64,000 nt of DNA from an uncultured Bacilli bacterium (GCA_905235635.1 CAJOMC010000003.1:15018-79017); one strand, 5' to 3'. Positions 1,509 through 55,023 are shown, numbered from the stretch's first letter. Program-made: numbers and translations. Notes: a model not told the origin generated them from the sequence alone.

Positions 1509-2237
1509 ATGGATAAAGATACTATCAAAATTGGTGTTCCATTTAAAGGCATGATAGGGCATAGAGGATGCGCAGGACTTGAGACTGAGAATACTCTTAA
1601 AGCTTTTAATGAAGGAGGATCTCGTTCATATATTGGTCTTGAATGTGACGTACATCCAACACTTGATGGTTTTATTGTGGTAAATCATGATGAAACACTT
1701 GAAAGAGTAGTTGGGAATAAAGCAATAATAAATAAGATGAATTTTAGTGAATTAAGAGAAATTCCGTTCCCCGATAAATCAAACAATAACGAGATTAATC
1801 CTTTAATACGTTTACCACTTCTTGAAGAATATCTTGATGTGTGTATTAAATATAACAAGATTCCAGTAGTAGAACTTAAACAAACTCTCAAATCTAAAGA
1901 TATTAATAAAGTGCTTGAGATAGTAAATAGTAAACACTTAATGGATAAAGTTATCTTTATCTCATTTTTCCCCGGATATTTAACTAAGATTAGAAGAAAA
2001 CTACCTAATGTACAAATACAGTTCTTATCTCAAAAATGGAGTGAAGGGGTATTTAATTTATGTACTCACTTTAATTTTGGCATTGACCTTGAACACACAG
2101 AGTGTACAAAAGAAGTAATAGATAAAATGCATAGTAAAGGACTAAAAGTGAATGTATATACCGTAGATGATAAGGATGAAGCACTAAGACTTATCTCATA
2201 TGGTATAGACTTTATCACTTCAAATATACTTGAATAA
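1509..2237 (+). CDS. glpQ: glycerophosphodiester phosphodiesterase
   Basis: GHRG..ENT..ECDV..VVNHDETLER motifs of the GDPD family. GGAG at 1499-1502 sits 6 nt before the ATG at 1509, so this start is preferred over the track start at 1497. Confidence 0.8.
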   Translation: MDKDTIKIGVPFKGMIGHRGCAGLETENTLKAFNEGGSRSYIGLECDVHPTLDGFIVVNHDETLERVVGNKAIINKMNFSELREIPFPDKSNNNEINPLIRLPLLEEYLDVCIKYNKIPVVELKQTLKSKDINKVLEIVNSKHLMDKVIFISFFPGYLTKIRRKLPNVQIQFLSQKWSEGVFNLCTHFNFGIDLEHTECTKEVIDKMHSKGLKVNVYTVDDKDEALRLISYGIDFITSNILE

Positions 2238-3073
2238 TGAATAAAAATTTATATAGCGCATTAATAAATGAAATAAATAACGAGATGTTGTTTATAACAT
2301 TCAACTATAATGCAAACTATCTTTCAAGAGATATAATTAATAAATTTGAGGAAAAAGAATTTAGAGATTTATCATCATCTAGATATTTAAAGAAGTTGAT
2401 CAAGCAATTTCTTGAATATTCAGATGAAATAGGTAATTTTATCACTCCCGATGAAATTGATATCTTAAGAAAGGGAGAATTTAATAAAAGTAATTTATTA
2501 TATCTTTATGATAAGATGACTCCATATCTTGAATCATATATTAAATTGCTTGATGAATTTGGTTCTAAAATAAGCTCAACGCTAGATACTAAAAGGCTCT
2601 CTAGCGGTTATACTGGTAAATTTCCCCTATATATGATATTAAGCGAGAATAAGTTAACACTTGAGCGCGCCTATATTCTTACTAACGCAAAAACGGTTTT
2701 AAGCAAACAATCAAAGAAATTTGGATTCTATGTATCATATGTAGATTATGACATAAAACTAGACAATTATCACTTAGATGGTTTCGATTTAAGAGATAGA
2801 TCTATTAATGAGATAATTGATTATGTAGATAAAAAATCCTTTAAATTCGATATGAACAGTTCAACCTACTATGAGACAGATACAATCGAATTTAAAGAAA
2901 ATATGGAGTATAGCTTAGGAGAACTGTCATTCTTCCTAGATAAAAAGAGACAGACCTTTAATGGGCTTAAGGCTGCCTTCAAACAAAGTTTTAAGACAGT
3001 GGGTATTTCCATCTTAATTCTTGTGGTATTTTTGGTTTTTTATTTTTTATATAGATATTTTATAAGGAGATAA
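2237..3073 (+). CDS. hypothetical protein with a single C-terminal transmembrane anchor
   Basis: 278-aa ORF. Its start overlaps the glpQ stop (TAATG). The C-terminus VGISILILVVFLVFYFLYRYF is strongly hydrophobic. No family recognised. Confidence 0.6.
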   Translation: MNKNLYSALINEINNEMLFITFNYNANYLSRDIINKFEEKEFRDLSSSRYLKKLIKQFLEYSDEIGNFITPDEIDILRKGEFNKSNLLYLYDKMTPYLESYIKLLDEFGSKISSTLDTKRLSSGYTGKFPLYMILSENKLTLERAYILTNAKTVLSKQSKKFGFYVSYVDYDIKLDNYHLDGFDLRDRSINEIIDYVDKKSFKFDMNSSTYYETDTIEFKENMEYSLGELSFFLDKKRQTFNGLKAAFKQSFKTVGISILILVVFLVFYFLYRYFIRR

Positions 3074-28817: not shown

Positions 28818-29405
28818 ATGAAAGTGAAAAAGATAATTTTAGCCACTAAAAACCTAAATAAAGTTAAAGAATTTAAAGAAATATTTAGTGAGTATGATTA
28901 TGAAGTATTATCTTTACTAGATTTATCATACCCCTTTCTAATTGATGAAAATGGTGATTCTTTTTCTTCTAATTCATATATAAAAGCTAAAGCAATTTAT
29001 GATTACTATAAACTACCTGTGATTGCGGATGATTCTGGATTATCGGTTGATGCACTTGATGGGCTTCCTGGTATTTATTCACATAGGTTTAGTGGAAGAA
29101 GCGCAAGTGATATAGATAATACACACAAAGTTATAAGTATGCTTAAAGATATGGGATTAACTGAATCAAATGCACATTTTACTTGCGCAATAACTTATAT
29201 GGATAGTGAAAAAACTATAACTAAAGAAGGATATATTTATGGGAAAGTAATTCTTGCCCCAAAAGGTTCAAATGGTTTTGGGTATGATCCTATATTTTAT
29301 TTAGATGAATATAAGAAAACACTTGCTGAACTCCCTGAATCTATTAAGAATAAAATATCACATAGATATAACGCACTCCTTAAACTAAAAGAGGTGCTTA
29401 AGTGA
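28818..29405 (+). CDS. rdgB: dITP/XTP pyrophosphatase (Ham1/RdgB)
   Basis: ATKNLNKVKEF, DDSGL.VDAL.G.PG.YS and FGYDPIF motifs; 195 aa. Confidence 0.9.
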   Translation: MKVKKIILATKNLNKVKEFKEIFSEYDYEVLSLLDLSYPFLIDENGDSFSSNSYIKAKAIYDYYKLPVIADDSGLSVDALDGLPGIYSHRFSGRSASDIDNTHKVISMLKDMGLTESNAHFTCAITYMDSEKTITKEGYIYGKVILAPKGSNGFGYDPIFYLDEYKKTLAELPESIKNKISHRYNALLKLKEVLK

Positions 29406-29905
29406 GATCACTTATTTTTAGTGATAGCCACTATAATCTTGAATATCTGGATAAGATGATTAAGGAATATAAGCCAGATAAAATTTATGGACTAGGTGAT
29501 TATGGTGCCTCAGAAATAGAACTTGATTTAAGAAGAGTAATAGGAGTTAGAGGAAATGATCCGTTTGACCCACAATCATATGGATATGATTATCTAGACG
29601 AAATAGATGGATTCAGGATACTTTTTACTCATGGTCATAAATATTCAGTTAAATATGGTAGATACCGTTTAGGACTTCGATCAAGAGAGTTAAATGTTGA
29701 TGTATGTTTTTATGGCCATACGCATGTAGTATCAATAGAAGAGGATAAAGGTATATATTTTATCAATCCTGGAAGCATATCTCTTCCATCATTCCCGAAC
29801 TTTCCTACTCTTATAATAATGGATTCAAAACCTAATTTACTGGATATTAAAATAATAGATGCAGAACTAAATAAGGTATATAAAAATATAATTATCAAGA
29901 AATGA
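29402..29905 (+). CDS. YfcE/MJ0936-family metallophosphoesterase
   Basis: SDSH.., GDYG, FTHGH and GHTH motifs; 167 aa; ATGA/GTGA-type overlaps on both sides. The rdgB-yfcE pairing is as in Bacillus ysnA-ysnB. Confidence 0.8.
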   Translation: MRSLIFSDSHYNLEYLDKMIKEYKPDKIYGLGDYGASEIELDLRRVIGVRGNDPFDPQSYGYDYLDEIDGFRILFTHGHKYSVKYGRYRLGLRSRELNVDVCFYGHTHVVSIEEDKGIYFINPGSISLPSFPNFPTLIIMDSKPNLLDIKIIDAELNKVYKNIIIKK

Positions 29906-32607
29906 CAAACGAAGAAGCATTAAACGAGAAATTCAATAAAATAGTTACTGATATTGAAACATCCACTAGGGATGGTGATTTTCCATTTGTCTTAACATTA
30001 ATTGATGATATAGAAGATTTTGATAGTTTTACCGCAGATAAGAAAAACCAAATATTAAATTATAAAGTTAAGGCGGCTCTTAAGATAGAAGATTATAATT
30101 TACTACTTAATGCCTTAAATGATAAAAAGAAATTACTGAAAGTAGGAACTATTGACCCTAATATCCTATTTTATGAGGCAATAGCGTATGAAGCGCTTGA
30201 TGAAGTTAATCTTGCGATAGAATACTTAAATAATATTATCGATAATATTCCAAGACACTCATTAATTAATAAATACCTAAAACTCGCTCTATTATATGCG
30301 AAAATAGGCGATGTAAAAAAGGCAAGCGAATCATATAATTATGCGTCACAGGTTGATTTTAATCATACTAACGAGATGTTTAGTTTGGTTGAATCTGACC
30401 TTTACTATTTATCTAATAAATATGAAGAAAGTCTTATATCTTTTGAGGATTTCTTCCGCAAGAGTTCAAATAAATATAAATATATTGATAGATATATTTT
30501 GATTGAAATTAAGCTTAATCATCTAGAAGAAGCTTATACTTTCTATACTGCCTATAAGAATAAACAAGGTATTATTCTTTCAAGTCAGAATAAATATAGG
30601 TTCTATAAGGCATCTCTTGAATTACTAAAGCTATTAAATAAGGAAGATGAAGCTCGTGAAGTTATAAAAGAACTAGAAAATATTAAGCCTCACTACGCGC
30701 TAAAAGAAGAGAAAGAGAACTTGAAGATCATCTCGATGATAGAAAAAATGTCTTTAATGCCTATAAGTAAGAATGATTCACCTAAGAATCTAGTTTTAAA
30801 GTATTATAAAGCATTAAAGGAGCTCTGTATTAAACATCTTTTTTACGTATCAGAAACACCTACAGGTTATTCGATATATGAGGCACTTGATACTAGAATG
30901 AGAGAAAAAGGATTATCTTTTGATGAGATTAAAGAAAAGAATCTAGAAGAATATATCCTTAATGACTTTAGCTTAAAAGATCACTATATTAATTATTATT
31001 TAGAAAGAATAGAAGAAGATTTTATTTCTCTTAATCTATATGATGAATACCATAACTTTGGAAAAATAGTATTATCCTATGATCAAGATAAAGAATATAT
31101 TTATGAAGCACTAAAAAATTCCTTATTTAGTTTATTTTTAAGACTTGATAGCATCAAGAAAGATACATTTAAATATGAATCTTTACTAGATATGATGTCT
31201 TTAATGAATTATGGAATTCTACTTTTTAGTGACAATATGATTCATCTTTTAAATGATAAGGCAAAAGATATATTAGAGAATAAAACATCCCTTATTAATT
31301 TTGAATACTTCTTAACCTTGTCTAAGGAAGATATCTTTGTGGATACTTTAAAAAAGAAAAAATCGATAATCAAATTTGAGATTAATTCTAAAGAAAAACA
31401 AATTGAGTTTATACCATATGAGAATAATGGAACCCTATTTACACTAATTAGGGATGTGTCAAATACTATTAATATTGAAAAAGAAAAAGACGATTTTCTG
31501 AAACGTTCTGGAACTAAGTTTTATAACGCAGAAACATTAAAAGAATATGTCGCAAAAAGAAATGAATCATATGCCTTAATTGGGCTTACCATTAATATGG
31601 TTTCCGCGTATGATTCTTTAAGCATAAGAAGTGAAAAGCTGGACCAACTTTATAAATTCCTAATTCAAGAGTCACCTTCATCATCACTCTTTTACTTAGG
31701 TGAAAATCACTATATCATCCTTATGAATAATACTGATAAAAGAGTAATAGAATCACTATATAAATCTATCGCAAGAAACATTAAACAATTATATAAAACA
31801 TCAACTACTTTAAGAGATGAAAATATTAGTGCTTTTGCGACCAAAGCACTAAAGAATAAAACCTGGAGTGACGTAGAGGAAATCCTTGAATATGGTTTTT
31901 TCCTTTCTAATAAGAGAGATGATTTTATCTTCATAGATAGTGAAGAAAAGAAAAAATATGCTTTATATAAGACATATGAAATAGAACTTATTAGATTATT
32001 AAAAGAGGAATCATTAAAGATAGAATATATACCTATTATTGATAAAGATAATGTAATTCATTACTTTATTCCTAAGTTTATCTTACCATTTAATATGGAC
32101 CAAAGAACATTTGAATCAATAATTAATATTAACCATCTCGAATCTAAAGCTGATCAAGTAATGTGTAATGTAGTATTTAATGATCTTAAGGAGTTTAATA
32201 AAGATATAAGAGTTATTATTAATATTCATAAAGAAACTATCTTCAATGATAATTTTGTAAAGAAATGTTCAGTACTATTCAAAAAATCTAATTTGGATAA
32301 TAAGGTAGTATTCAATATAGACAATTTATCTCAAGACAATTATGTCAAAAATGTTAAATCACTTCAAAATAGTGGTATTAAATTTGCAGGATTATTCTCA
32401 ACATTTAGTGACCTCGATACACTTGATAGGTATAGTATTTTATTTATGAATTTTGATGCGGCAAATAACCTTAATTTATCTATCGCAAAATCTATAAAAG
32501 AGAATAAGGATATAGAAATAGTATTATTTGATACTAAAACCGACTTTAGCTTAACCCTTAATTCAAAGGTTAAGTCATACACAAAAGAGGAAATGCTTAA
32601 GTTATAA
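29902..32607 (+). CDS. TPR-like / PAS-like sensor protein with degenerate GGDEF and degenerate EAL domains
   Basis: aa 60-260 hold TPR-like helical repeats. aa 529-690 are collinear with the GGDEF fold (DFLKRSGTKFYN.., YALIGLTINMVSAY, LFYLGENHYIILM), but GG(D/E)EF reads GENHY. aa 693-901 are collinear with EAL (ELIRLL..KIEYIPIID, VVFNIDN, GIKFAGLFSTFSDL..FMNFD), but the EAL and DDFG motifs are lost. Confidence 0.65.
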   Translation: MTNEEALNEKFNKIVTDIETSTRDGDFPFVLTLIDDIEDFDSFTADKKNQILNYKVKAALKIEDYNLLLNALNDKKKLLKVGTIDPNILFYEAIAYEALDEVNLAIEYLNNIIDNIPRHSLINKYLKLALLYAKIGDVKKASESYNYASQVDFNHTNEMFSLVESDLYYLSNKYEESLISFEDFFRKSSNKYKYIDRYILIEIKLNHLEEAYTFYTAYKNKQGIILSSQNKYRFYKASLELLKLLNKEDEAREVIKELENIKPHYALKEEKENLKIISMIEKMSLMPISKNDSPKNLVLKYYKALKELCIKHLFYVSETPTGYSIYEALDTRMREKGLSFDEIKEKNLEEYILNDFSLKDHYINYYLERIEEDFISLNLYDEYHNFGKIVLSYDQDKEYIYEALKNSLFSLFLRLDSIKKDTFKYESLLDMMSLMNYGILLFSDNMIHLLNDKAKDILENKTSLINFEYFLTLSKEDIFVDTLKKKKSIIKFEINSKEKQIEFIPYENNGTLFTLIRDVSNTINIEKEKDDFLKRSGTKFYNAETLKEYVAKRNESYALIGLTINMVSAYDSLSIRSEKLDQLYKFLIQESPSSSLFYLGENHYIILMNNTDKRVIESLYKSIARNIKQLYKTSTTLRDENISAFATKALKNKTWSDVEEILEYGFFLSNKRDDFIFIDSEEKKKYALYKTYEIELIRLLKEESLKIEYIPIIDKDNVIHYFIPKFILPFNMDQRTFESIININHLESKADQVMCNVVFNDLKEFNKDIRVIINIHKETIFNDNFVKKCSVLFKKSNLDNKVVFNIDNLSQDNYVKNVKSLQNSGIKFAGLFSTFSDLDTLDRYSILFMNFDAANNLNLSIAKSIKENKDIEIVLFDTKTDFSLTLNSKVKSYTKEEMLKL

Positions 32608-33908
32608 TGGAAAAAATAGTTAATGTAGTAGGCGCAGGACTTGCGGGAGCTGAGGCGTCTTATCAACTCACAAAAAGAGGGATAAGAGTAAGGCTATATG
32701 AAATGAAGAGAATAAAAAGAAATGAGGCACAAAAAAGTGACTATTTTTCTGAACTAGTTTGCTCGAACTCGCTTAGGTCGTCGAATATTAATAATGCCGT
32801 AGGTCTTTTAAAAGAAGAACTTAGAATGATGGATTCGCTTATTATAAGGATTGCGGATGAAACAAGAGTACCCGCAGGGGATTCGCTTGCGGTAGATAGA
32901 GAACTATTTGCTAAAAGAATCACAGAAGAGATAGAGAATAATCCATTAATTGAAGTAATAAATGAGGAAGTTAAAACAATTCCAAAAGGCCCTACAATTA
33001 TCGCATCTGGACCGCTCACATCGCTCCCCTTATCTAAGTCAATTCAAGAATTCTTTGGTGAAGAATACCTATATTTCTTCGATGCGATAGCACCTATTAT
33101 AGAAAAAGAATCAATTAATTTCGATAAAGCATACTACAAATCTAGATGGGATAAAGGAACTAAAGATTACATTAATTGTCCTTTTACAAAAGAAGAATAT
33201 ATAGAATGGTATAATGAATTAATTAAACTTGAATCTGTCGAGTCACATGATTTTGAAATCAAGGTATTTGAAGGATGTATGCCATTTGAGGAAATGGCTA
33301 AACGTGGCGTTGATACACTTCGTTTTGGTCCAATGAAACCAGTAGGTTTATATCTTCAAAACTTTAAACCCTATGCAGTTGTGCAACTAAGAAAAGATGA
33401 CCTAAAAGATTCTTTATACAATATCGTAGGTTTCCAAACCAAACTAAAATATTCATCACAAGATAAAATAATCCATATGATTCCAGGCCTTGAAAACGCA
33501 AGAATTATAAGATATGGGCAAATGCATAGAAATACCTTTATCAATGCACCTGGTTTAATTAATTCGTCTTATCAGACTCTTAAAAGACCTGACCTCTTCT
33601 TTGCGGGTCAGTTATCTGGCGTTGAAGGATATGTAGAATCAACCGCATCTGGTCTTGTCGCAGGTATAAACATGGCAAGATACCTTAATGGATTATCTCT
33701 CCTATCTTTTCCAAATGATACCGCAATTGGTTCAAGCGCATATTATTTGGAAAATGCTTCAAAGAAAGACTTTCAACCTATGAATGTAAATTATGGTATA
33801 TTTAAGGACTTAGATCTATCTATTAAAGATAAAGCTATAAGAAAAGAAGCCTATAGTAAAAGAGCCCTTGAGTCATTAAAGAGGTTTAAAGATGAATACA
33901 ACGAATAG
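32607..33908 (+). CDS. trmFO: methylenetetrahydrofolate--tRNA-(uracil54-C5)-methyltransferase
   Basis: VVGAGLAGAEASYQL FAD motif; CSNSLR catalytic Cys region; 433 aa; followed by xerC/codV as in Bacillus. Confidence 0.92.
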   Translation: MEKIVNVVGAGLAGAEASYQLTKRGIRVRLYEMKRIKRNEAQKSDYFSELVCSNSLRSSNINNAVGLLKEELRMMDSLIIRIADETRVPAGDSLAVDRELFAKRITEEIENNPLIEVINEEVKTIPKGPTIIASGPLTSLPLSKSIQEFFGEEYLYFFDAIAPIIEKESINFDKAYYKSRWDKGTKDYINCPFTKEEYIEWYNELIKLESVESHDFEIKVFEGCMPFEEMAKRGVDTLRFGPMKPVGLYLQNFKPYAVVQLRKDDLKDSLYNIVGFQTKLKYSSQDKIIHMIPGLENARIIRYGQMHRNTFINAPGLINSSYQTLKRPDLFFAGQLSGVEGYVESTASGLVAGINMARYLNGLSLLSFPNDTAIGSSAYYLENASKKDFQPMNVNYGIFKDLDLSIKDKAIRKEAYSKRALESLKRFKDEYNE

Positions 33909-34812
33909 TCTATATGTAAATGAGTTTCTTTTATATCTAAAAAATGAAAGAAGATATTCGTCTTATACAATTACCGCATACTCTAATGATATTAGTAACT
34001 TCATTAATTTTATTGAAACTGAAGAATTTGGCGATGTAACTGAAATATCGCCAAAGGTAGCGGAATTCTACGTAAGTAAATTAAGAGATGAATATACACC
34101 TAGAACTATACAACGTAAAATATCTAGTGTTAAGTCATTTTATAAATACTTTGCGAACTCAGTTAAAAAGATAGATTCTAATCCTTTTATTTCAGTATCA
34201 CTTCCTAAGGTAGAAAAATCTCTTCCTAAGTTTGTATATGAAGATGAAGTAGAGGAATTTTTAGATAATATTAACACCAGTACTGATTTAGGCAAAAGAG
34301 ATAAATTAATCTTTGAATTATTATATGGATCTGGCATTAGAGTATCTGAACTATGCCAGATAAAACTAAAAGATGTATCCCTAGATGAAAGAAGAATTAT
34401 GATACACGGTAAAGGTTCAAAAGATAGAATAGTTCCTATATCAAAAGGTGCTTTAGATTCATATATGGATTATTTTATCATCGCAAGGCCCATCTTTCTT
34501 TCAAGATCAAAAAACCTTGAAAATGATACACTTTTACTAAATTTTCACGGTGGTTCTTTAACCACTAGAGGTGTAAGAGATATTTTAAATAGAGTGTTAA
34601 GAGAAACTGAAACATTTATGAGAGTTACACCTCATGCATTCCGTCACTCATTCGCAACACATCTATTAAATAATGGAATGGATGTGAGGTTTGTCCAGGA
34701 ACTACTTGGGCACGAAAACCTATCAACCACCCAAATTTATACTAAATTATCAAAAGAAAAACTTAAGGAAGAATATAATAAAGCCTTTAATGATGGTGGA
34801 AAAAATGATTAA
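33892..34812 (+). CDS. xerC: tyrosine recombinase XerC/CodV-type
   Basis: RTIQRKISSVKSFY core-binding region; HAFRHSFATHLL..LLGHENLSTTQIYT catalytic R-H-R-Y box; 306 aa. Confidence 0.88.
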   Translation: MNTTNSLYVNEFLLYLKNERRYSSYTITAYSNDISNFINFIETEEFGDVTEISPKVAEFYVSKLRDEYTPRTIQRKISSVKSFYKYFANSVKKIDSNPFISVSLPKVEKSLPKFVYEDEVEEFLDNINTSTDLGKRDKLIFELLYGSGIRVSELCQIKLKDVSLDERRIMIHGKGSKDRIVPISKGALDSYMDYFIIARPIFLSRSKNLENDTLLLNFHGGSLTTRGVRDILNRVLRETETFMRVTPHAFRHSFATHLLNNGMDVRFVQELLGHENLSTTQIYTKLSKEKLKEEYNKAFNDGGKND

Positions 34813-35272
34813 GATAATTTGTATTGGCAAATTAAAAGAGAAATATCTTGTGGATGGGATAAATGAATACCTAAAAAGATTATCGAGATTCATAAAAGTT
34901 GAAATAATTGAACTAAAAGAGTATCCATCATTTGACGAATCTCAATCTAGTATAGATAAAACTAAAGTTGAAGAAGGAAAGGAAATTTTATCTAAAATAT
35001 CAAATGAATATGTGATAGCCTTAGATCCAAATGGATTAATGCTTGATAGTATAGAGTTTTCAAAAAAGTTAGAATCAATTTATATTAATTCAAGTGATAT
35101 CACCTTTATAATAGGTGGTTCTTATGGATTATCAAGCTCAGTAAAAGATAGAGCGAATTACCTAATGTCTTTTTCTAAGTTGACCTTCCCACACCAACTC
35201 TTTCGTCTCATTCTCTTAGAACAGATTTTTCGTGCCTATAAGATAATGAGAAATGAGACATATAATAAGTAG
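34805..35272 (+). CDS. rlmH: 23S rRNA (pseudouridine1915-N3)-methyltransferase
   Basis: MIKIICIGKLKEKY...IGGSYGLS...LSFSKLTFPHQL SPOUT motifs. A true length of 155 aa fits RlmH; the track ORF (34691) is a spurious 5' extension inside xerC. Confidence 0.9.
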   Translation: MIKIICIGKLKEKYLVDGINEYLKRLSRFIKVEIIELKEYPSFDESQSSIDKTKVEEGKEILSKISNEYVIALDPNGLMLDSIEFSKKLESIYINSSDITFIIGGSYGLSSSVKDRANYLMSFSKLTFPHQLFRLILLEQIFRAYKIMRNETYNK

Positions 35273-43339: not shown

Positions 43340-44128
43340 ATGAAAGCATACTTTATAACTAGTGACACACACAGTTTCTTTGAACCGTTTTATAATGAAC
43401 TACTTGAAAAAGGATTTGATATTAATAATGAAAGTCATATCCTAATTTTCTGTGGAGATTTATTTGATAGAGGACCAGACAGTATGAAACTATACGAGTT
43501 TATTAAATCTATTCCAAAAGGAAGAAGAGTGCTTATAAAAGGAAATCATGAATATTTATTCATTAATTTATTATATAAAGATATCCCAGATCATTATGAC
43601 CATACAAATGGCACAGTTAATACACTTATAACTCTCACAAATGATAAATATACAAACTGGCATGATTTAGTTATAGATCCAAAACTAGATGAAATTAAGA
43701 GATGGTTCCTTTCAAAAGAATGGGTAGATTACTTCGAGACAAACAATTATATATTTACCCATGCATTTATTCCACTTCTAATAGATGAAGCATCATATAT
43801 TAGACATATGTATAATGTAGATATAAGATATTTATCATATAAAGATAATTGGAGAGAATCAACTCCAAAAGAATTCGAAAATGCGACATGGGGCTGTCCT
43901 TGGAGGCTCGCAAAAGCATGGCTAAATCAAACAGGTAAAACAATTGTATGTGGCCACTGGCATACATCAGACTTCTTCAATAATTTAATGAATCTAGAAC
44001 ACAAATATAATCTCTATGAAGAAAACCCTATATTCATATCTAAAGAATATAATCTAATAGGACTAGATGCCTGTACAGCCGCAACCCATAAAGTTAATGT
44101 ATTAGTTCTTAATGAAGATGAATTATAA
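43340..44128 (+). CDS. metallophosphoesterase (PPP/ApaH-like Ser/Thr phosphatase fold)
   Basis: SDTH, GDLFDRGPDS, GNHE and GHWH motifs; 262 aa. Confidence 0.75.
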   Translation: MKAYFITSDTHSFFEPFYNELLEKGFDINNESHILIFCGDLFDRGPDSMKLYEFIKSIPKGRRVLIKGNHEYLFINLLYKDIPDHYDHTNGTVNTLITLTNDKYTNWHDLVIDPKLDEIKRWFLSKEWVDYFETNNYIFTHAFIPLLIDEASYIRHMYNVDIRYLSYKDNWRESTPKEFENATWGCPWRLAKAWLNQTGKTIVCGHWHTSDFFNNLMNLEHKYNLYEENPIFISKEYNLIGLDACTAATHKVNVLVLNEDEL

Positions 44129-46022: not shown

Positions 46023-47315
46023 ATGAAAAATTATTTAACAAAAGGACTATCATTAATATTTACTCTAGTATTAGTATTATCTTTATCTGCATGTAAATGG
46101 AACATGAGCGAAGATGCTAATGCTACTGGTAAAGAAGGCTCAATTGCACTATTAAATGAGTTCTTTGCTACTACACTTGAAGATCCTAATTTTGTAGTTA
46201 CATATAAGAGTGATGATGTAGCTCAATATACTGAAAATGTTTTAGGAAAAAACAGCTTTGTTCACAATAAGAATGATGATTTAACATATGCTTATATAAA
46301 AGATGGATTCTATTATTATGTATACACATATAAAGATATCGTTGATGGCGAAATTGTTAATGGACGTTACTATCTAACAAGCGATGAATCAAAACAATAT
46401 TATTCAGAATATGCTGAAGATTATTATAATAATCAATATTGTCAATTCCTATCTAATATTAGATTAATGGAAATGCTTAAGGAAGAAGATGGTGTGACAT
46501 TTAGCTGTGATTATCATAAAGAAAAAGAAGATGAACAATCAACATCTACAGTAGAATTTAAATATATATCAGAAGGTGGAACTATCACAATTAGCGCTAC
46601 AGCTAAAAATGATTTAGTTAAGACAGCTAGTATGATCGTAGTTGATAATACAGATCCAAATGGAAACCGTAATCTAAGTCTTTCATTTGTATATGGAAAT
46701 GCAACTATAATTTTACCTGATACAGATGCTTGGGCAGAAGAAGATTTTAAAGTTGAAGAGGAAGAAGAGCCTACTCCAAATGAACTCGCAATTAGAGCAC
46801 GTGATGAGTTTTTAAGTGAAGGTGGTGTATATACTGATAATATCGTTATCACATGTAAAGCTTATGGATCAGTAATGTTTGTTGAAACACTTTCAAATGG
46901 CATTGATAAGATTGATAATAAAACCTACCAAACATATACATACGCTAAATTAAATGCTAAAGAAGATTTTGATTACTATTATGTATATGATGGAAGTGAA
47001 AAATACTATAAAGTAAATGATCCGCTAACATACGGTTCAGCAAGTGCAAAGTTCTATAAAGAACACGTTAGTCTTTTAGAAGATAATGAAGAAGCTGTAC
47101 TTGAATGTGTGGTTGAAGGCGATACAATGAATTATACTGTTAAAGTTAATGACGCAACTATCTTACAACTTACCGCAACAAAAGTAGATGGCAAAATCCT
47201 TAGTATGACTGAAATATTTAATATAGGATTCCCTATGACATATGAGTTTACATTCGAATATGACACTGCACCACTAACAGAACCAGATTTAACTGGTTTT
47301 GAAGATAGATCATAA
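46023..47315 (+). CDS. acidic lipoprotein built from two homologous halves, unknown function
   Basis: Lipobox LSLSACK; AAGGAG SD. The two halves share order and motifs (..YYYVY.. in both) and are joined by the linker EEDFKVEEEEEPTPNE. Confidence 0.7.
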   Translation: MKNYLTKGLSLIFTLVLVLSLSACKWNMSEDANATGKEGSIALLNEFFATTLEDPNFVVTYKSDDVAQYTENVLGKNSFVHNKNDDLTYAYIKDGFYYYVYTYKDIVDGEIVNGRYYLTSDESKQYYSEYAEDYYNNQYCQFLSNIRLMEMLKEEDGVTFSCDYHKEKEDEQSTSTVEFKYISEGGTITISATAKNDLVKTASMIVVDNTDPNGNRNLSLSFVYGNATIILPDTDAWAEEDFKVEEEEEPTPNELAIRARDEFLSEGGVYTDNIVITCKAYGSVMFVETLSNGIDKIDNKTYQTYTYAKLNAKEDFDYYYVYDGSEKYYKVNDPLTYGSASAKFYKEHVSLLEDNEEAVLECVVEGDTMNYTVKVNDATILQLTATKVDGKILSMTEIFNIGFPMTYEFTFEYDTAPLTEPDLTGFEDRS

Positions 47316-47335: not shown

Positions 47336-48445
47336 ATGAAAAAGATTAATATATTAGTAATAATAATGTTGATGGTTTTTGCGCTTACAAGCTGCAAAAA
47401 CAAAAAAGATTATTTTAAATCATGGAATGATTGTGATTCGTTAAAGACATTAATCGCCTATGTTGAAGATGTCACTAACGAGAAATCACCTAACTTTATT
47501 CCAGTCGAAGATAGAATCGCAACATTCGATATGGATGGTACTTTTATAGGTGAACTTTATCCATCATATTTTGAATATAACCTACTAGAATATCGTGTTC
47601 TTGATGATCCATCATATAAGGATATAGCTCCAGATGATGTTAAGGAAACTGCGATGGATATAAGAAGATTTGTAAGAGAAGGCAAAAAACTTCCAGATCA
47701 TTTCGATATGAAACATGCATACGCTGCCGCAAAAGCTTATAGTGGAATGACTTTAAAAGAATTTGATGAATATGTTAAGGCATATGCAAGGAAAAACGCT
47801 AATGGATTTACTAATCTTACCTATGGTGATGCATTCTATAAACCTATGCTTGAAGTATTTAAATATCTAGAAGATAATGGTTTTACATATTACGTTGTAT
47901 CAGGATCTGATAGATATATCTGCCGTGCAATAGTTGAACCAATAGGCATTCCTTCAAATCGTGTTATTGGTATGGATGTAGTACTTAAATCAGATAACCA
48001 AGGTGATACTGAAGGTGTTAACTATACATACCAAGTCACTGATACACTTATTCGTACCGATGAACTAATTATTAAGAACTTAAAAACTAATAAAGTTAAA
48101 CAAATAGCTCAAGAGATAGGAAAAGTTCCAGTACTATCATTTGGTAATTCAGGCGGTGATAGCGCAATGCATAATTACTGTTTAAGCAACGAAAAATACA
48201 AAACACTCGCATTTATGTTAATTGCGGATGATGATGTAAGAGACCACGCTAATAGAGAGAAGGCTTTAGGTTTAAAAGAAGATTGGATTAAAGCAAATTA
48301 CGTTGTAATTTCTATGCGTGATGATTTTAAAACTATCTATGGAGAAGATGTAGAAAAAGTAGACTTTATATTTGATAATGTAATAACAACATCTTCATCT
48401 ATCTATGATAAGTTAATAATCAACACTGGTTATCAAACTGCATAA
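47336..48445 (+). CDS. HAD-superfamily phosphatase lipoprotein
   Basis: Lipobox FALTSCK; HAD motif I FDMDGTF; SGS motif II region; GNSGGDSAM motif; 369 aa. Confidence 0.7.
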   Translation: MKKINILVIIMLMVFALTSCKNKKDYFKSWNDCDSLKTLIAYVEDVTNEKSPNFIPVEDRIATFDMDGTFIGELYPSYFEYNLLEYRVLDDPSYKDIAPDDVKETAMDIRRFVREGKKLPDHFDMKHAYAAAKAYSGMTLKEFDEYVKAYARKNANGFTNLTYGDAFYKPMLEVFKYLEDNGFTYYVVSGSDRYICRAIVEPIGIPSNRVIGMDVVLKSDNQGDTEGVNYTYQVTDTLIRTDELIIKNLKTNKVKQIAQEIGKVPVLSFGNSGGDSAMHNYCLSNEKYKTLAFMLIADDDVRDHANREKALGLKEDWIKANYVVISMRDDFKTIYGEDVEKVDFIFDNVITTSSSIYDKLIINTGYQTA

Positions 48446-48904: not shown

Positions 48905-50149
48905 ATGGAAGAAAGAACTGTTCATATATACTTAAGCCTCGATGAAGAAATATATTTGGGAAAATTATTTGCACAAAAGATAGGCACAAAAGAAATATAT
49001 TCTATCGAGCTAAGCGATGAGTATCTGAAATCAAAATACAGTAAATATAAACTTGATCCTGAATTAAATAATTATTCAGGAAGACAATTTTTGTCATCCA
49101 AAAAAGCCATTTTTGGTTTTCTTTCTGATGCTGCTCCTGATAAATGGGGAAGAACTTTAATCAAAAGAAAAGAAAATATTCAGTCAAATATAGAAGGAAG
49201 AAGACCAAGAAAACTCACAGAATTAGATTACTTATTATCAGTATATGATGAATCAAGAATGGGTGCTTTAAGATTTAAACTTGACATAAATGGTGATTAT
49301 ATAGCTAATGATGAAGAAAATACTATTCCACCATGGGTCTATATTAGAACATTAGAAGACTACGCAATAAAATATGATTCTGAAGAAGAGATAGATGATG
49401 ATTGGATTAAGAACCTCCTAAAACCAGGTTCATCTTTGGGTGGCGCAAGGCCTAAAGCATCAATTTATTCAACCGATGGTAGCCTATGGATTGCAAAATT
49501 TCCATCCAAAATAGATACTTATGATGTTGGTGCTTGGGAGGCAGTATCATATGAACTCGCTAGAATGTGTAAACTAAATGTTTCAGATTTTAAGTTAGAA
49601 AAGTTTTCTAAGTATGGTTCAACCTTCCTAACTAAAAGATTCGATAGAAATAATAAAGAAAGAATACATTTTATCTCTTTTATGACATGTTTGAATGCGA
49701 TTGATGGTGAATCTAATAATTACAGCTATATAGATTTAGCATCATATATTAAGGCATATTCCTCTAAACCTACTTTAGATTTAATAGAATTGTGGAAAAG
49801 AATCGTATTTAATATGGCTATTTCTAATACAGACGATCACTTAAGGAATCATGGTGTCGTAATAAACAAAGATGGGATTAGATTATCCCCACTTTACGAT
49901 ATAAACCCAAGCCCATATGGTGATAGCCTATCATTAAATATTACGAAAGATAATAATTTAATTGATACAGACAATTTGCTTAAGACGTATATGTACTATA
50001 ACTTAAGTAAGGAAGATGCGGTTAAGTATTATAATGATGTTGTTTCTACTATTAATCATAATTGGATGAAAGTCGCTAAAAACCTAGGTATTTCATCTAG
50101 TTCTATCGAAATGATGAAGTCATCATTCTCTTTAAAAGAAATTAAATAA
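48905..50149 (+). CDS. hipA: HipA-family serine/threonine kinase toxin
   Basis: GSSLGGARPKASI (HipA ATP/P-loop-like motif) and SNTDDHLRNHGVV (catalytic D-x-H-x-(K/R)-N); N-terminal HipA_N-like coupling domain; 414 aa. Confidence 0.8.
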   Translation: MEERTVHIYLSLDEEIYLGKLFAQKIGTKEIYSIELSDEYLKSKYSKYKLDPELNNYSGRQFLSSKKAIFGFLSDAAPDKWGRTLIKRKENIQSNIEGRRPRKLTELDYLLSVYDESRMGALRFKLDINGDYIANDEENTIPPWVYIRTLEDYAIKYDSEEEIDDDWIKNLLKPGSSLGGARPKASIYSTDGSLWIAKFPSKIDTYDVGAWEAVSYELARMCKLNVSDFKLEKFSKYGSTFLTKRFDRNNKERIHFISFMTCLNAIDGESNNYSYIDLASYIKAYSSKPTLDLIELWKRIVFNMAISNTDDHLRNHGVVINKDGIRLSPLYDINPSPYGDSLSLNITKDNNLIDTDNLLKTYMYYNLSKEDAVKYYNDVVSTINHNWMKVAKNLGISSSSIEMMKSSFSLKEIK

Positions 50150-53050: not shown

Positions 53051-54106
53051 CTAGTTTAAAATATCAATTAATTTATGTTCTATATTGTATGTATTTTCAT
53101 TAATACTAAATAGTAGAGAACCTATCTTGGTGTAGTAATCAAATGTAGATGTTTTTATACCATATGATACTCTAAGCCCATCACAATCAACTGAGAGAGT
53201 ATTATTATGATTATGTGCTACAAACATAGTATCAAATGATAGTTCTTTGAGTTTATCATATAAATCGAATGAAGAGAATCCACCAAGCGCCTCACCTTTA
53301 ACTCCAAAATCCTTATTATCTATAAGTTTTGTACCACCTAAATCATAATATTCTTTATTATCGCCTTTATCATCACTTTGATATCCTTTTTCGAATAAAT
53401 ATTTATTCACAAAATCGGGAATAATATGCGTACATATTGTCTTTTTAACTGGTCGACCGTTTGTGATATCTATATCTTTACTAGTTTTGTACAGGAATTC
53501 TCTTTGATCAGGGAATAGTCCTCCACCTTTTTCAATGTGCTCATCTTGGTTGTATGGAGGATAATCTTTAAGATAAAAATATTCTTTTCCACACCATACG
53601 CCATTTGAATCCATCATAAATATAACTCTAATTAGTTCGTTGTTTCTATATATACCAATATTATAATTTCCATTTCCGGTTAATTCTCTTCTTTTAAATA
53701 AACAATATTTTGAATTTAGAAACTGTGCACATTGCCAAGTAACCCCTAATTTACACTCATTATCGTGATTTCCAAATATTGGAGCCCAAGGAATCTTGTA
53801 TTTATCCATAAATTCACAAAATTCTATTAGATTTGAACCGTTGTCATCAAATTCACCATATATAATATCGCCTGTCACAAGTATTAAATCTGGGCTATTA
53901 TCTCTAATAGCTTTATCGATATAATAGAATTCATTATTCCATTTCATCTCTTTAGTAAATGGAGTACCAAATTTAAAATAATCAAGACGACCATCATATC
54001 TTTGTTGAGAAGGATCAACTGGTTGCATATCAGTAATTTGAAGAATTCTAATATCTCTTTTGAAATCAAAATCTAATCTAAAATCAATTAATTCATTAAG
54101 ATTCAT
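53051..54106 (-). CDS. calcineurin-like metallophosphoesterase (cytoplasmic)
   Basis: ILQITDMQ, VTGDIIYGE, FGNHDNE and VAHNHNN motifs; 351 aa; no signal peptide. Confidence 0.75.
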   Translation of the reverse strand: MNLNELIDFRLDFDFKRDIRILQITDMQPVDPSQQRYDGRLDYFKFGTPFTKEMKWNNEFYYIDKAIRDNSPDLILVTGDIIYGEFDDNGSNLIEFCEFMDKYKIPWAPIFGNHDNECKLGVTWQCAQFLNSKYCLFKRRELTGNGNYNIGIYRNNELIRVIFMMDSNGVWCGKEYFYLKDYPPYNQDEHIEKGGGLFPDQREFLYKTSKDIDITNGRPVKKTICTHIIPDFVNKYLFEKGYQSDDKGDNKEYYDLGGTKLIDNKDFGVKGEALGGFSSFDLYDKLKELSFDTMFVAHNHNNTLSVDCDGLRVSYGIKTSTFDYYTKIGSLLFSINENTYNIEHKLIDILN

Positions 54107-54207
54107 GTCTCTAACCTCTTATATAATGTATTCTATAATACTCAATAAATGTATTCAATATCAAAATGTGCTACACTTATATTAGTATTTGTGAAAGGAA
54201 GAATAAT

Positions 54208-55023
54208 ATGTCATTTATTCAAGAAAATATTTTAGAGATTAACATTGGTCTAAATAAAGAATATAAGATAATTCATATTAGTGATGTTCACGCAGTTACA
54301 TCTTGTGATAATGATAGTGATGATGTGAAAGAAGAAGCACTTAAAGTAGAAGATTTATGGTATAGACAGCGTACCTGGTTTGCAGATAAATTTGGTGAAT
54401 ATTATGACGAATCTCATATGATTCCATCTAAAGAAGCATTTGAAAAACTAATAGATTATATCAATAACGAGAATCCAAATGTATCTATTCTCTCTGGTGA
54501 TATAATTGATTATTACTCTGAATCTAACTTTAAAATGCTTGAAGAGGAATGCGATAAGATTAAAGTTCCATATCTATTTTTAATTGGTAATCATGAAGCA
54601 CCAACTGAAAGATTTAAATCATTAACTAAAAGTGATATTGGGTTTTCTAAGATAGATTTAGGTGAGTTTAAAATAGTTTCAATAGATAATTCTACAAAAT
54701 CTGTGTCACCTGCTACATTAAATAGTTTTAAAGAAGAACTAGATGACAATAAACCGATTATAGTAGCTATGCATATTCCTGTATCAACTTCTTATAATAA
54801 AGATGAAATGAATAAGTTAGATCAATACTTCATTATTAATCACGACGATACAGATAGCACTACAAAGGAATTCATTGATATACTTATTTCGAATCCAAAT
54901 ATTAAGGGAGTTTTATGCGGTCATCTTCATGGATTTAGTTATACACATTATGCAAACGATAAACCCCAAATATCCGCAAGTAGTGGATTAATTGGATGGG
55001 TAAATAAGATTATTGTTAAATAA
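54208..55023 (+). CDS. calcineurin-like metallophosphoesterase (cytoplasmic)
   Basis: IIHISDVHA, LSGDIIDY, IGNHE and CGHLHG motifs. GAAAGGAAG SD favours the ATG at 54208 over the track start at 54166. Confidence 0.75.
   Translation: MSFIQENILEINIGLNKEYKIIHISDVHAVTSCDNDSDDVKEEALKVEDLWYRQRTWFADKFGEYYDESHMIPSKEAFEKLIDYINNENPNVSILSGDIIDYYSESNFKMLEEECDKIKVPYLFLIGNHEAPTERFKSLTKSDIGFSKIDLGEFKIVSIDNSTKSVSPATLNSFKEELDDNKPIIVAMHIPVSTSYNKDEMNKLDQYFIINHDDTDSTTKEFIDILISNPNIKGVLCGHLHGFSYTHYANDKPQISASSGLIGWVNKIIVK

Follow-up and report, generated by a model that had tools for sequence, protein, structure and literature searches.

A tetratricopeptide repeat protein with a degenerate GGDEF-EAL tandem, encoded beside rdgB and yfcE, is a candidate cyclic di-GMP-independent scaffold

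Gene X, the subject of this study, lies in a 64-kb stretch of DNA (~30% G+C; TGA is a stop codon) from an uncultured Bacilli bacterium (CAJOMC010000003.1:15018-79017), the whole of which we call the window. The gene occupies 29902..32607 on the + strand (stop included), starts with ATG, and encodes a 901-residue protein that comprises, from the N to the C terminus, a tetratricopeptide repeat (TPR) array, two PAS-like modules, a degenerate GGDEF domain, and a degenerate EAL domain. The C-terminal half of X is homologous to the GGDEF-EAL tandem of cyclic di-GMP (c-di-GMP) enzymes, with both folds kept, and the aligned residues indicate that both active sites are completely dead. On balance, X is probably a c-di-GMP-independent scaffold or adaptor, the dead descendant of a PAS-PAS-GGDEF-EAL protein joined to a TPR array, that would neither make nor degrade, and most probably not bind, c-di-GMP. 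Dead GGDEF-EAL proteins are already known, and those that have been studied are nearly all proteobacterial, recognizable by sequence, and mostly read as c-di-GMP receptors. The X family is an extreme end point, in which the folds are kept, the catalytic and ligand residues are lost, and curated GGDEF models are blind to the family; its lineage lies between the Firmicutes and the wall-less Mollicutes, and selection acts on the added TPR array.

Homology of the C-terminal half of X and loss of its active-site residues

Plain profile searches were insufficient to establish the relationship of X to GGDEF-EAL proteins. The Pfam EAL model (PF00563) matched X below its cut-off (24.8 bits versus 31.3; E = 1.6e-5; profile positions 46-150 of 236), the Pfam GGDEF model (PF00990) gave no match to X even at E ≤ 10, and no NCBIfam family matched the protein. 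When 17 close homologs were examined, weak EAL matches were obtained for 9 and GGDEF matches for none of the 17. A distant relative, P0024, scored 20.4 bits with PF00990 (cut-off 23.8; E = 4.6e-4), and two distant relatives exceeded the EAL cut-off (P0028, 33.0 bits; P0035, 36.1 bits). Searches of Protein Data Bank (PDB) sequences were too weak to stand alone, returning only designed TPR proteins for the full-length profile (E of at least 0.17) and only the EAL enzyme Bd1971 for the C-terminal profile (E = 0.31). A first-pass annotation, made by eye from the DNA, had proposed the GGDEF-EAL tandem and had named the lack of significant profile hits as a result that would speak against it; with a sub-threshold EAL match, no GGDEF match, and no NCBIfam match, the searches at this level came close to that result.

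The homology is clear because profile-profile alignment of the family, predicted structure, and the reach of the family profile agree. A family profile built from the last 380 residues of 38 sequences was aligned with hhalign to a canonical GGDEF-EAL set, which was taken from the exhaustive representative search and includes P0052, a protein with perfect GGDEF, EALAR, DDFGTG, EGVE, and QGY motifs. The whole C-terminal profile aligned with a probability of 99.9% (E = 3e-30, 364 columns), the GGDEF half alone with 88% (E = 3.2e-6, 115 columns), and the EAL half alone with 99.3% (E = 3e-20), compared with 0.2% for crossed negative controls. An AlphaFold2 model of X, built on the family alignment, had a mean predicted local distance difference test score (pLDDT) of 86.5, and its best PDB match by Foldseek was DosP (E = 2.4e-15, 741 columns), with PA0575 GGDEF-EAL (E = 5e-12), MorA (E = 2e-11), and the LapD S-helix-GGDEF-EAL structure (E = 1e-10) also matched; alignments of ~420 columns were obtained to the tandem structures 5m3c, 4rnf, 6pwk, and 3pjw (E = 5e-12 to 5e-10). 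About 30 isolated EAL structures were matched with template modeling (TM) scores of 0.6-0.73 and root mean square deviations of 3.1-4.4 Å; for EAL-only structures such as 3pfm, 3pju, and 4rni these ranges were 0.65-0.73 and 3.1-4.0 Å. These analyses place a degenerate GGDEF-like domain at residues 541-683 (31522..31950, +; hhalign, Foldseek, and model secondary structure) and a linker helix followed by a degenerate EAL-like TIM-barrel domain at residues 684-901 (31951..32604, +; Pfam, hhalign, and Foldseek). The modeled GGDEF-like domain has the alpha-beta-alpha-beta-beta-alpha-beta-alpha-beta order of secondary structure elements that is found in GGDEF. At its weak end the family profile reaches true GGDEF-EAL proteins, namely P0049 (GGDEF, E = 5e-22; EAL, E = 7e-53) and the LapD-like P0055, and distant members of the family still show remnants of the motifs, among them FQP and, toward the C terminus, '...IYDH...V.G' where AEGVE...QG is expected. 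The tandem read by eye is thus borne out both by hhalign (99.9%) and by a confident structural model that matches GGDEF-EAL tandems at E values of 1e-10 to 2e-15.

The fate of each catalytic and ligand-binding position was read from the hhalign register against the canonical proteins, with positions named after PleD and RocR. In the GGDEF-like domain, T563-I564-N565 (31588..31596, +) stands at the D-x-D metal-binding site of diguanylate cyclases, with T563 at the position of the metal-binding Asp (PleD D327) and with no conserved acidic residue in the family columns. The GG(D/E)EF motif (with PleD E370) is replaced by G600-E-N-H-Y604 (31699..31713, +; family consensus GENHF), or LGENHY when the preceding codon is included (31696-31713). 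Of the PleD residues that bind the GTP base, N335 falls in a gap and D344 corresponds to S577; the Lys and Arg that contact phosphate, K332 and R366, correspond to S568 and Y598. The RxxD I-site is absent from positions 591-594, which read SPSS both in X and in the family consensus. In the EAL-like domain, the segment from Y709-IPIID (YQPIv, with Q replaced by I710) through I723-P-K725 (E-A-L) spans 32026..32076 (+), YIPIID lying at 32026-32043 and IPK at 32068-32076. The Arg of EALxR falls in an alignment gap, and ExxE reads N805-I-D-N808. At the DDFGTG site (32389..32406, +) X has G830-LFSTF, D295 being aligned with L831 and the remainder lost to a 5-residue deletion. The catalytic Lys, the Glu of EGVE, and the Gln of QG correspond to F848, F876, and K895, respectively. 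The equivalent of RocR N233 is kept in X (N774), but 22 of the 38 relatives have Pro there. In total, X keeps none of the 11 key GGDEF positions and one of the 12 key EAL positions, none of these positions is conserved among the 38 relatives, and an intact residue set was found at neither active site in any of the 38. The loss is therefore ancient. A different register with intact catalytic residues was considered and rejected; global and local profile alignments agree, and no acidic or conserved family column lies near the motifs. With respect to the by-eye reading, hhalign reproduced the register of TIN at D-x-D, (L)GENHY at GGDEF, and IPK at E-A-L after YIPIID, and the coordinates translate as claimed; for GLFSTF at DDFGTG the coordinates were correct and the register was shifted by one residue (L831 plus the deletion), acidic residues being absent either way.

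TPR array, PAS-like modules, and sequence constraint

The N-terminal region of X (residues 1-308; 29902..30825, +) is predicted to be a TPR-like array of helical hairpins on the basis of the model, weak Pfam matches, and Foldseek. The model has 16 helices arranged in hairpins across residues 3-308. Scores with the Pfam TPR models were below threshold for X (TPR_2, 19.1 bits versus 27; TPR_6, 19.5 versus 26.3), weak TPR_2 matches recurred in all 17 of the close homologs and TPR_6 matches in 12 of them, and Foldseek matched the TPR superhelices 8chy and 1w3b at E = 3e-5. The signature motifs of the array are LINKYLKLALLY, LVESDLYY, and NKYKYxDRYIL, and its invariant residues include N123-K-Y-L-K-L128, L162-V-E-S-D166, and Y194-x-D-R-Y198. 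A TPR-only profile run against a set of 5.8 billion proteins returned three short fragments on ~1-kb contigs and was uninformative about other architectures, probably owing to saturation of the word prefilter. Following the array, a PAS/GAF-like module 1 (residues 309-394; 30826..31083, +; sub-model and Foldseek), a 40-residue connecting helix like that of dimeric tandem-PAS sensors (residues 395-434; 31084..31203, +; model secondary structure), and a PAS-like module 2 with its following signaling helix (residues 435-540; 31204..31521, +; models and Foldseek) were assigned. When residues 286-540 were modeled separately, two PAS-like alpha/beta modules joined by the 40-residue helix were obtained with a pLDDT of 90.5 and a predicted TM score (pTM) of 0.74. 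The best matches of this region were LOV-PAS-HK, PpsR N-Q-PAS1, DhaR(N), the FixL tandem PAS, and DosP (E = 2e-7 to 1e-3); DhaR(N) is a GAF-like plus a PAS domain, hence the PAS/GAF-like designation of module 1. Pfam gave no PAS or GAF match in X. At the level of fold, these results agree with the TPR-like repeats and PAS/GAF-like region expected from the first reading of the sequence, and the modeled architecture would be TPR, PAS-like, helix, PAS-like, helix, degenerate GGDEF, and degenerate EAL, that is, a TPR array placed in front of a DosP-like chassis.

Conservation was measured over 42 nonredundant full-length members sharing 23-76% identity with X, and columns conserved at ≥90% were counted. 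Of 38 such columns, 33 lie in the TPR array, between residues 60 and 234. The two PAS-like modules contain none and have no conserved ligand residues. In the GGDEF-like domain the only residues conserved at this level are D612-K613-R614 (31735..31743, +; family alignment), located at the N terminus of the helix that follows the beta-hairpin and forming the family signature T-x-DKR-V/I. The extended motif T-x-D-K-R-(V/I)-x-x-R is near-invariant even in relatives that share nothing else recognizable in this domain. The EAL-like domain contributes L746 and D751 only and has no conserved polar cluster. D612 aligns with an Asp with which the same helix begins in canonical P0052, and D751 with an Asp that is moderately conserved in the helices of canonical EAL domains; both look like inherited structural residues on this alignment, and K613-R614 is specific to the family. 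The DKR motif might cap the helix and add a basic patch, contact a phosphate, or mediate contact between domains. Since the strongest constraint falls on the TPR columns, the constrained functional surface would be the protein-binding TPR array and not the former nucleotide sites. Uninterrupted ORFs (open reading frames) of ~900 codons are kept in >40 genomes, from the closest homolog at 76% protein identity down to 23%, and this retention, the confident folds (pLDDT 86-90), the 33 near-invariant TPR residues, and the fixed genomic position indicate that X is under strong purifying selection.

Conserved locus, c-di-GMP machinery, and possible roles of X

The family is very small, its members having been found 17 times among 5.8 billion clustered proteins and 42 times (E ≤ 1e-3) among 1.84 billion representative proteins; a protein identical to X (P0001) is present in public assemblies. 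According to the genome records, the carriers are classed as Izemoplasmatales, 'Tenericutes', or 'Mycoplasmatota' (among them strain zrk2, whose genome is complete; CP076020) or are uncultured rumen and gut 'Bacillales/Bacillota' metagenome-assembled genomes (MAGs). Automated annotation leaves the proteins unnamed or assigns them no more than a weak EAL tag from Pfam, and nothing on gene X was found in the literature on Izemoplasma and c-di-GMP or in two Izemoplasmatales papers. The order rdgB-yfcE-X holds in all 25 loci with upstream sequence, and the distance from the yfcE stop to the first ATG of X is -41 to +3 nucleotides in 25 of 26 loci, a spacing typical of translational coupling. A divergent CPBP-like gene lies beside the three genes in ~20 of 25 loci. 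The genes 3' of X vary by genome, and trmFO-xerC-rlmH follows X in this genome only. The first-pass annotation had described X as locked by 4- and 1-nucleotide overlaps into a housekeeping operon running from rdgB to rlmH, an odd home for a signaling protein. Translation and NCBIfam support the overlaps and the names of the neighbors; the link to rdgB-yfcE holds across the family, and the trmFO-xerC-rlmH part does not, so the conserved unit is rdgB-yfcE-X alone. The linkage is therefore family-wide and ancient; it ties X to a pair of nucleotide-phosphate hydrolases, and genes for tRNA/rRNA modification or recombination have no part in it.

Components of c-di-GMP signaling were sought with custom hidden Markov models on all six-frame ORFs of the window, with Pfam on 30 further ORFs, and with Pfam tags over the central 20 kb. 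The window contains no other GGDEF, EAL, PilZ, or HD-GYP gene. An Rfam scan of the window and four related loci detected tRNAs only, with no c-di-GMP or c-di-AMP riboswitch, and no diguanylate cyclase or PilZ gene was seen in ~0.5 Mb (the window plus related loci). Within the ~0.45 Mb of related loci the sole canonical hit was a fusion of PTS_EIIC with EAL, shared by three rumen MAGs that are close relatives (L004:3555-5648, L009:5436-7529, and L012:2-2077), encoded two to three genes upstream of rdgB-yfcE-X and absent from the window. This protein of ~694 residues joins a PTS EIIC permease domain to a C-terminal EAL domain whose motifs are intact (YQP, ETLLR, N, EVTE, DDFSMG, KID, EYVE, and QG), so some hosts may still degrade c-di-GMP. 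Its unusual architecture suggests sugar-transport-linked hydrolysis of c-di-GMP where no cyclase was seen. The third of these contigs, L012 (JAILNJ010000138.1), and its protein P0012 are labeled 'Gammaproteobacteria bacterium' in the source; the contig shares the Rce1-like/rdgB/yfcE/X locus and PTS_EIIC-EAL with rumen MAGs of the Bacillota/Izemoplasmatales type and is probably mis-binned or mislabeled.

Several known proteins resemble X in part. DosP (PdeO) of Escherichia coli (PDB 9cmf and 9bkv) is arranged in the same order, with two PAS domains and helical linkers ahead of a GGDEF domain, also degenerate, and an EAL domain, and a DosP-type architecture is probably ancestral to X. The PAS of DosP binds heme and its EAL domain is active, whereas X lacks conserved PAS residues and the EAL catalytic residues, adds a TPR array of 300 residues, and shares only ~9% identity with DosP. 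CsrD of E. coli, which is still recognized by the Pfam GGDEF and EAL models, is membrane-anchored and acts on CsrB/C small RNA decay, targeting these RNAs to RNase E; it shows no detectable relation to X beyond the fold and differs in its N terminus and genomic context. It resembles X in having two dead domains and in regulating nonenzymatically through macromolecular contacts (PMC5635695). Both domains of LapD (Pseudomonas fluorescens and Vibrio cholerae) and FimX are inactive, as in X, and the LapD tandem matches X in fold (6pwk and 3pjw), but LapD sits in the membrane and carries HAMP and periplasmic domains, in contrast to the soluble X with its TPR and PAS-like regions. The degeneration of LapD is also only mild (RGGEF and KVL), and its EAL pocket binds c-di-GMP (PMC3032553). 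RflP (YdiV) and BluF (YcgF) use a degenerate EAL fold as a protein-interaction module that binds or sequesters transcription regulators (PMC5635695). Unlike X, these are single-domain or BLUF-EAL enterobacterial proteins without GGDEF, PAS, or TPR, and their partners FlhDC and BluR are absent here. The GGDEF domain of GdpS recruits DgkB without using catalytic residues in Staphylococcus aureus, for which c-di-GMP synthesis is not known (PMC11962490), and of the proteins compared here GdpS best illustrates how X could function without c-di-GMP. It is a 5TMR membrane protein whose only GGDEF domain retains its motif, whereas X is soluble, has a motif-free GGDEF-EAL tandem, and has the TPR array as its most constrained surface.

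In the account that we favor, a PAS-PAS-GGDEF-EAL signaling ancestor with a DosP-like core would have gained an N-terminal TPR array. The core of PAS, helix, PAS, helix, and GGDEF-EAL would provide a rigid and probably dimeric chassis; we infer the dimer by analogy with DosP, LapD, and LOV-PAS kinases. The conserved TPR groove would bind a conserved protein partner, and X would work as an adaptor or scaffold, as GdpS does in recruiting DgkB and as do CsrD, RflP/YdiV, and BluF. More speculatively, X might organize or regulate the YfcE-family phosphodiesterase, RdgB, or their substrate pool, which would be its likeliest target because the coupling of translation is seen in every genome; that YfcE and/or RdgB is the partner itself, a suggestion drawn from synteny, is doubtful. 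Several points weigh against the scaffold reading. The rdgB-yfcE pair is widespread in Firmicutes without X, so the synteny may reflect nothing more than co-expression. The PAS or EAL-like domains may contain a noncanonical ligand site. The conserved DKR motif and D751 are left without an assigned role, and the full-length model has a pTM of 0.43, so that its inter-domain geometry is unreliable.

The first-pass annotation had left the choice between a c-di-GMP receptor and a scaffold, and the scaffold is the better supported of the two. That X is a receptor of the LapD/FimX type, in which the degenerate EAL pocket would bind c-di-GMP or pGpG and the PAS and TPR regions would transmit the signal, is unlikely, because X is without the catalytic and c-di-GMP-contacting residues that degenerate receptors retain. 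The Gln of YQP, the Glu and Arg of EALxR, both Glu residues of ExxE, the two Asp residues of DDFGTG, the Lys, the Glu of EGVE, and the Gln of QG are substituted or deleted family-wide, and the LapD-like P0055 keeps 10 of the 12 pocket positions compared with one of 12 in X, that one being unconserved in the family. The missing RxxD I-site, the lack of a conserved polar cluster in the EAL-like domain, and the failure to find a cyclase, a PilZ gene, or a c-di-GMP riboswitch in the ~0.5 Mb point the same way. In favor of a receptor, doubly degenerate GGDEF-EAL proteins have classically been seen as such (PMC3032553), X finds some of its best structural matches in LapD S-helix-GGDEF-EAL, and the intact PTS_EIIC-EAL encoded near X in some related genomes means that c-di-GMP may exist in the lineage. 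Decay to a functionless relic in a reduced genome is very improbable. All active sites of X are destroyed, and the host lineage is described as undergoing reductive evolution (PMC8397711), but the long ORFs, confident folds, near-invariant TPR residues, and fixed position noted above speak for a maintained gene, and a pseudogene was rejected on the conservation of both sequence and locus.

The remaining alternatives give X a function of another kind. An action on RNA or on a transcription factor, with an incidental operon position, would follow the example of CsrD, RflP/YdiV, and BluF, the degenerate GGDEF-EAL or EAL proteins of E. coli that work in this way (PMC5635695), and the variable genes 3' of X leave operon content beyond rdgB-yfcE unconstrained. 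We consider this improbable, since neither a nucleic-acid-binding domain nor a basic patch was found in X, X has only its folds, and no sequence relationship, in common with CsrD and RflP, and synteny with rdgB-yfcE in 25 of 25 loci across 23-76% identity is hard to dismiss. Sensing of another small molecule, whether a noncanonical purine nucleotide, c-di-AMP, (p)ppGpp, or a metabolite, in the PAS-like modules or in remodeled GGDEF/EAL pockets, with allosteric regulation of the co-translated YfcE and/or of RdgB, is unlikely although plausible. It would account for the universal linkage of rdgB, yfcE, and X, with genes overlapping or abutting, and for the two PAS-like modules predicted with high confidence, and the invariant, family-specific DKR could contact a phosphate. 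Degenerate GGDEF domains of the GdpP type in Firmicutes also adjoin phosphoesterase domains. The absence of any PAS column conserved at ≥90% argues against one conserved ligand or cofactor, and D612, which aligns with an Asp of P0052, may be a mere structural helix cap (the equivalent position is commonly Asp in GGDEF domains). A combination of ideas, in which X is the regulatory or scaffold subunit of an RdgB-YfcE-X nucleotide-hygiene module, bound to YfcE and/or RdgB through its invariant TPR groove and perhaps also sensing a nucleotide other than c-di-GMP via the GGDEF/EAL domains, the PAS modules, or DKR, is rather improbable. If it were true, X would couple house-cleaning hydrolysis to the state of the cell in nucleic-acid-scavenging, genome-reduced Bacilli. 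GGDEF-EAL proteins would then gain a class of output not seen in them before, and a phosphodiesterase of the YfcE/YsnB type would for the first time have a partner or function assigned to it. Under the favored scaffold reading, X is a natural case of the uses to which a GGDEF-EAL chassis can be put after c-di-GMP chemistry is lost and would extend the GdpS precedent. X also gives a genetic handle on the YfcE/YsnB phosphodiesterases, and proteins of its family should be left out of counts of c-di-GMP enzymes and receptors in genomic censuses.

Gene junctions and other features of the window

The ORF list and translation confirmed the 901-residue ORF at 29902-32607 exactly as it was first called. 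Immediately upstream on the + strand are rdgB (28818..29405), encoding an XTP/dITP diphosphatase of the RdgB/HAM1 type (TIGR00042, 183.8 bits versus a cut-off of 145.35), and a gene for a YfcE-family metallophosphodiesterase (29402..29905; TIGR00040, 71.8 bits versus 56.25). The rdgB and yfcE genes share 4 nucleotides (GTGA), the yfcE stop and the X start share 4 nucleotides (ATGA), and the X stop and the trmFO start share 1 nucleotide (TAATG). A gene for an Rce1/CPBP-like intramembrane protease (28012..28809, -; PF02517) precedes rdgB and is divergent from it, and trmFO, xerC, and rlmH (32607..35272, +; NCBIfam) lie downstream of X. Between rdgB and rlmH no convincing + strand terminator was detected, the sole candidate being a weak 5-bp stem inside X, and the promoter/terminator scan scored no better than shuffled sequence. 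No membrane segments were predicted in X, and its N terminus is a soluble helical repeat; X is a cytoplasmic, soluble protein. PADLOC gave no relationship of X to defense systems. The xerC gene overlaps trmFO by 17 nucleotides. Two starts are available for rlmH within the ORF at 34691-35272, a TTG at 34691 (193 residues, with a 122-nucleotide overlap of xerC) and an ATG at 34793 (159 residues); the RlmH model matches the 159-residue version from residue 6, and public assemblies call the shorter start.

Elsewhere in the window, a 118-codon ORF at 27289-27645 (+) matches chloramphenicol acetyltransferase (CAT; PF00302) at about half the usual CAT length. Together with a 67-codon ORF ~100 nucleotides downstream (L001:4703-4906), it may represent a CAT-like gene that became a pseudogene by splitting or truncation. 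Two ORFs without a Pfam family at E ≤ 1e-5, at 2237-3070 (+, 278 residues) and 11389-12306 (-, 306 residues), lie among carbohydrate-metabolism genes (PfkB, GDPD, phosphoglucomutase, and the Leloir pathway). The tRNA genes at 17610-17681 (+) and 20366-20454 (-) flank a Pfam-less ORF of 381 codons (17704-18846) and an AAA_14/DUF4143 ATPase gene (18980-20263), and the segment 17610-20454 may be a small inserted island. A HipA-like kinase gene at 48905-50146 (+; HipA_C, E = 1e-47) is preceded by ORFs of 430 and 369 codons without a Pfam family (46023-47312 and 47336-48442). The G+C content is lowered to 26-27% over 42-46 kb in the region of this cassette, which may be a toxin-antitoxin or a novel accessory cassette. 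Four genes for calcineurin-like metallophosphoesterases, at 43340-44125, 53054-54106, 54166-55020, and yfcE itself at 29402-29905, are present in the 64 kb, an unusually dense occurrence that may be linked to the scavenging of nucleic acids and nucleotides described for Izemoplasmatales.

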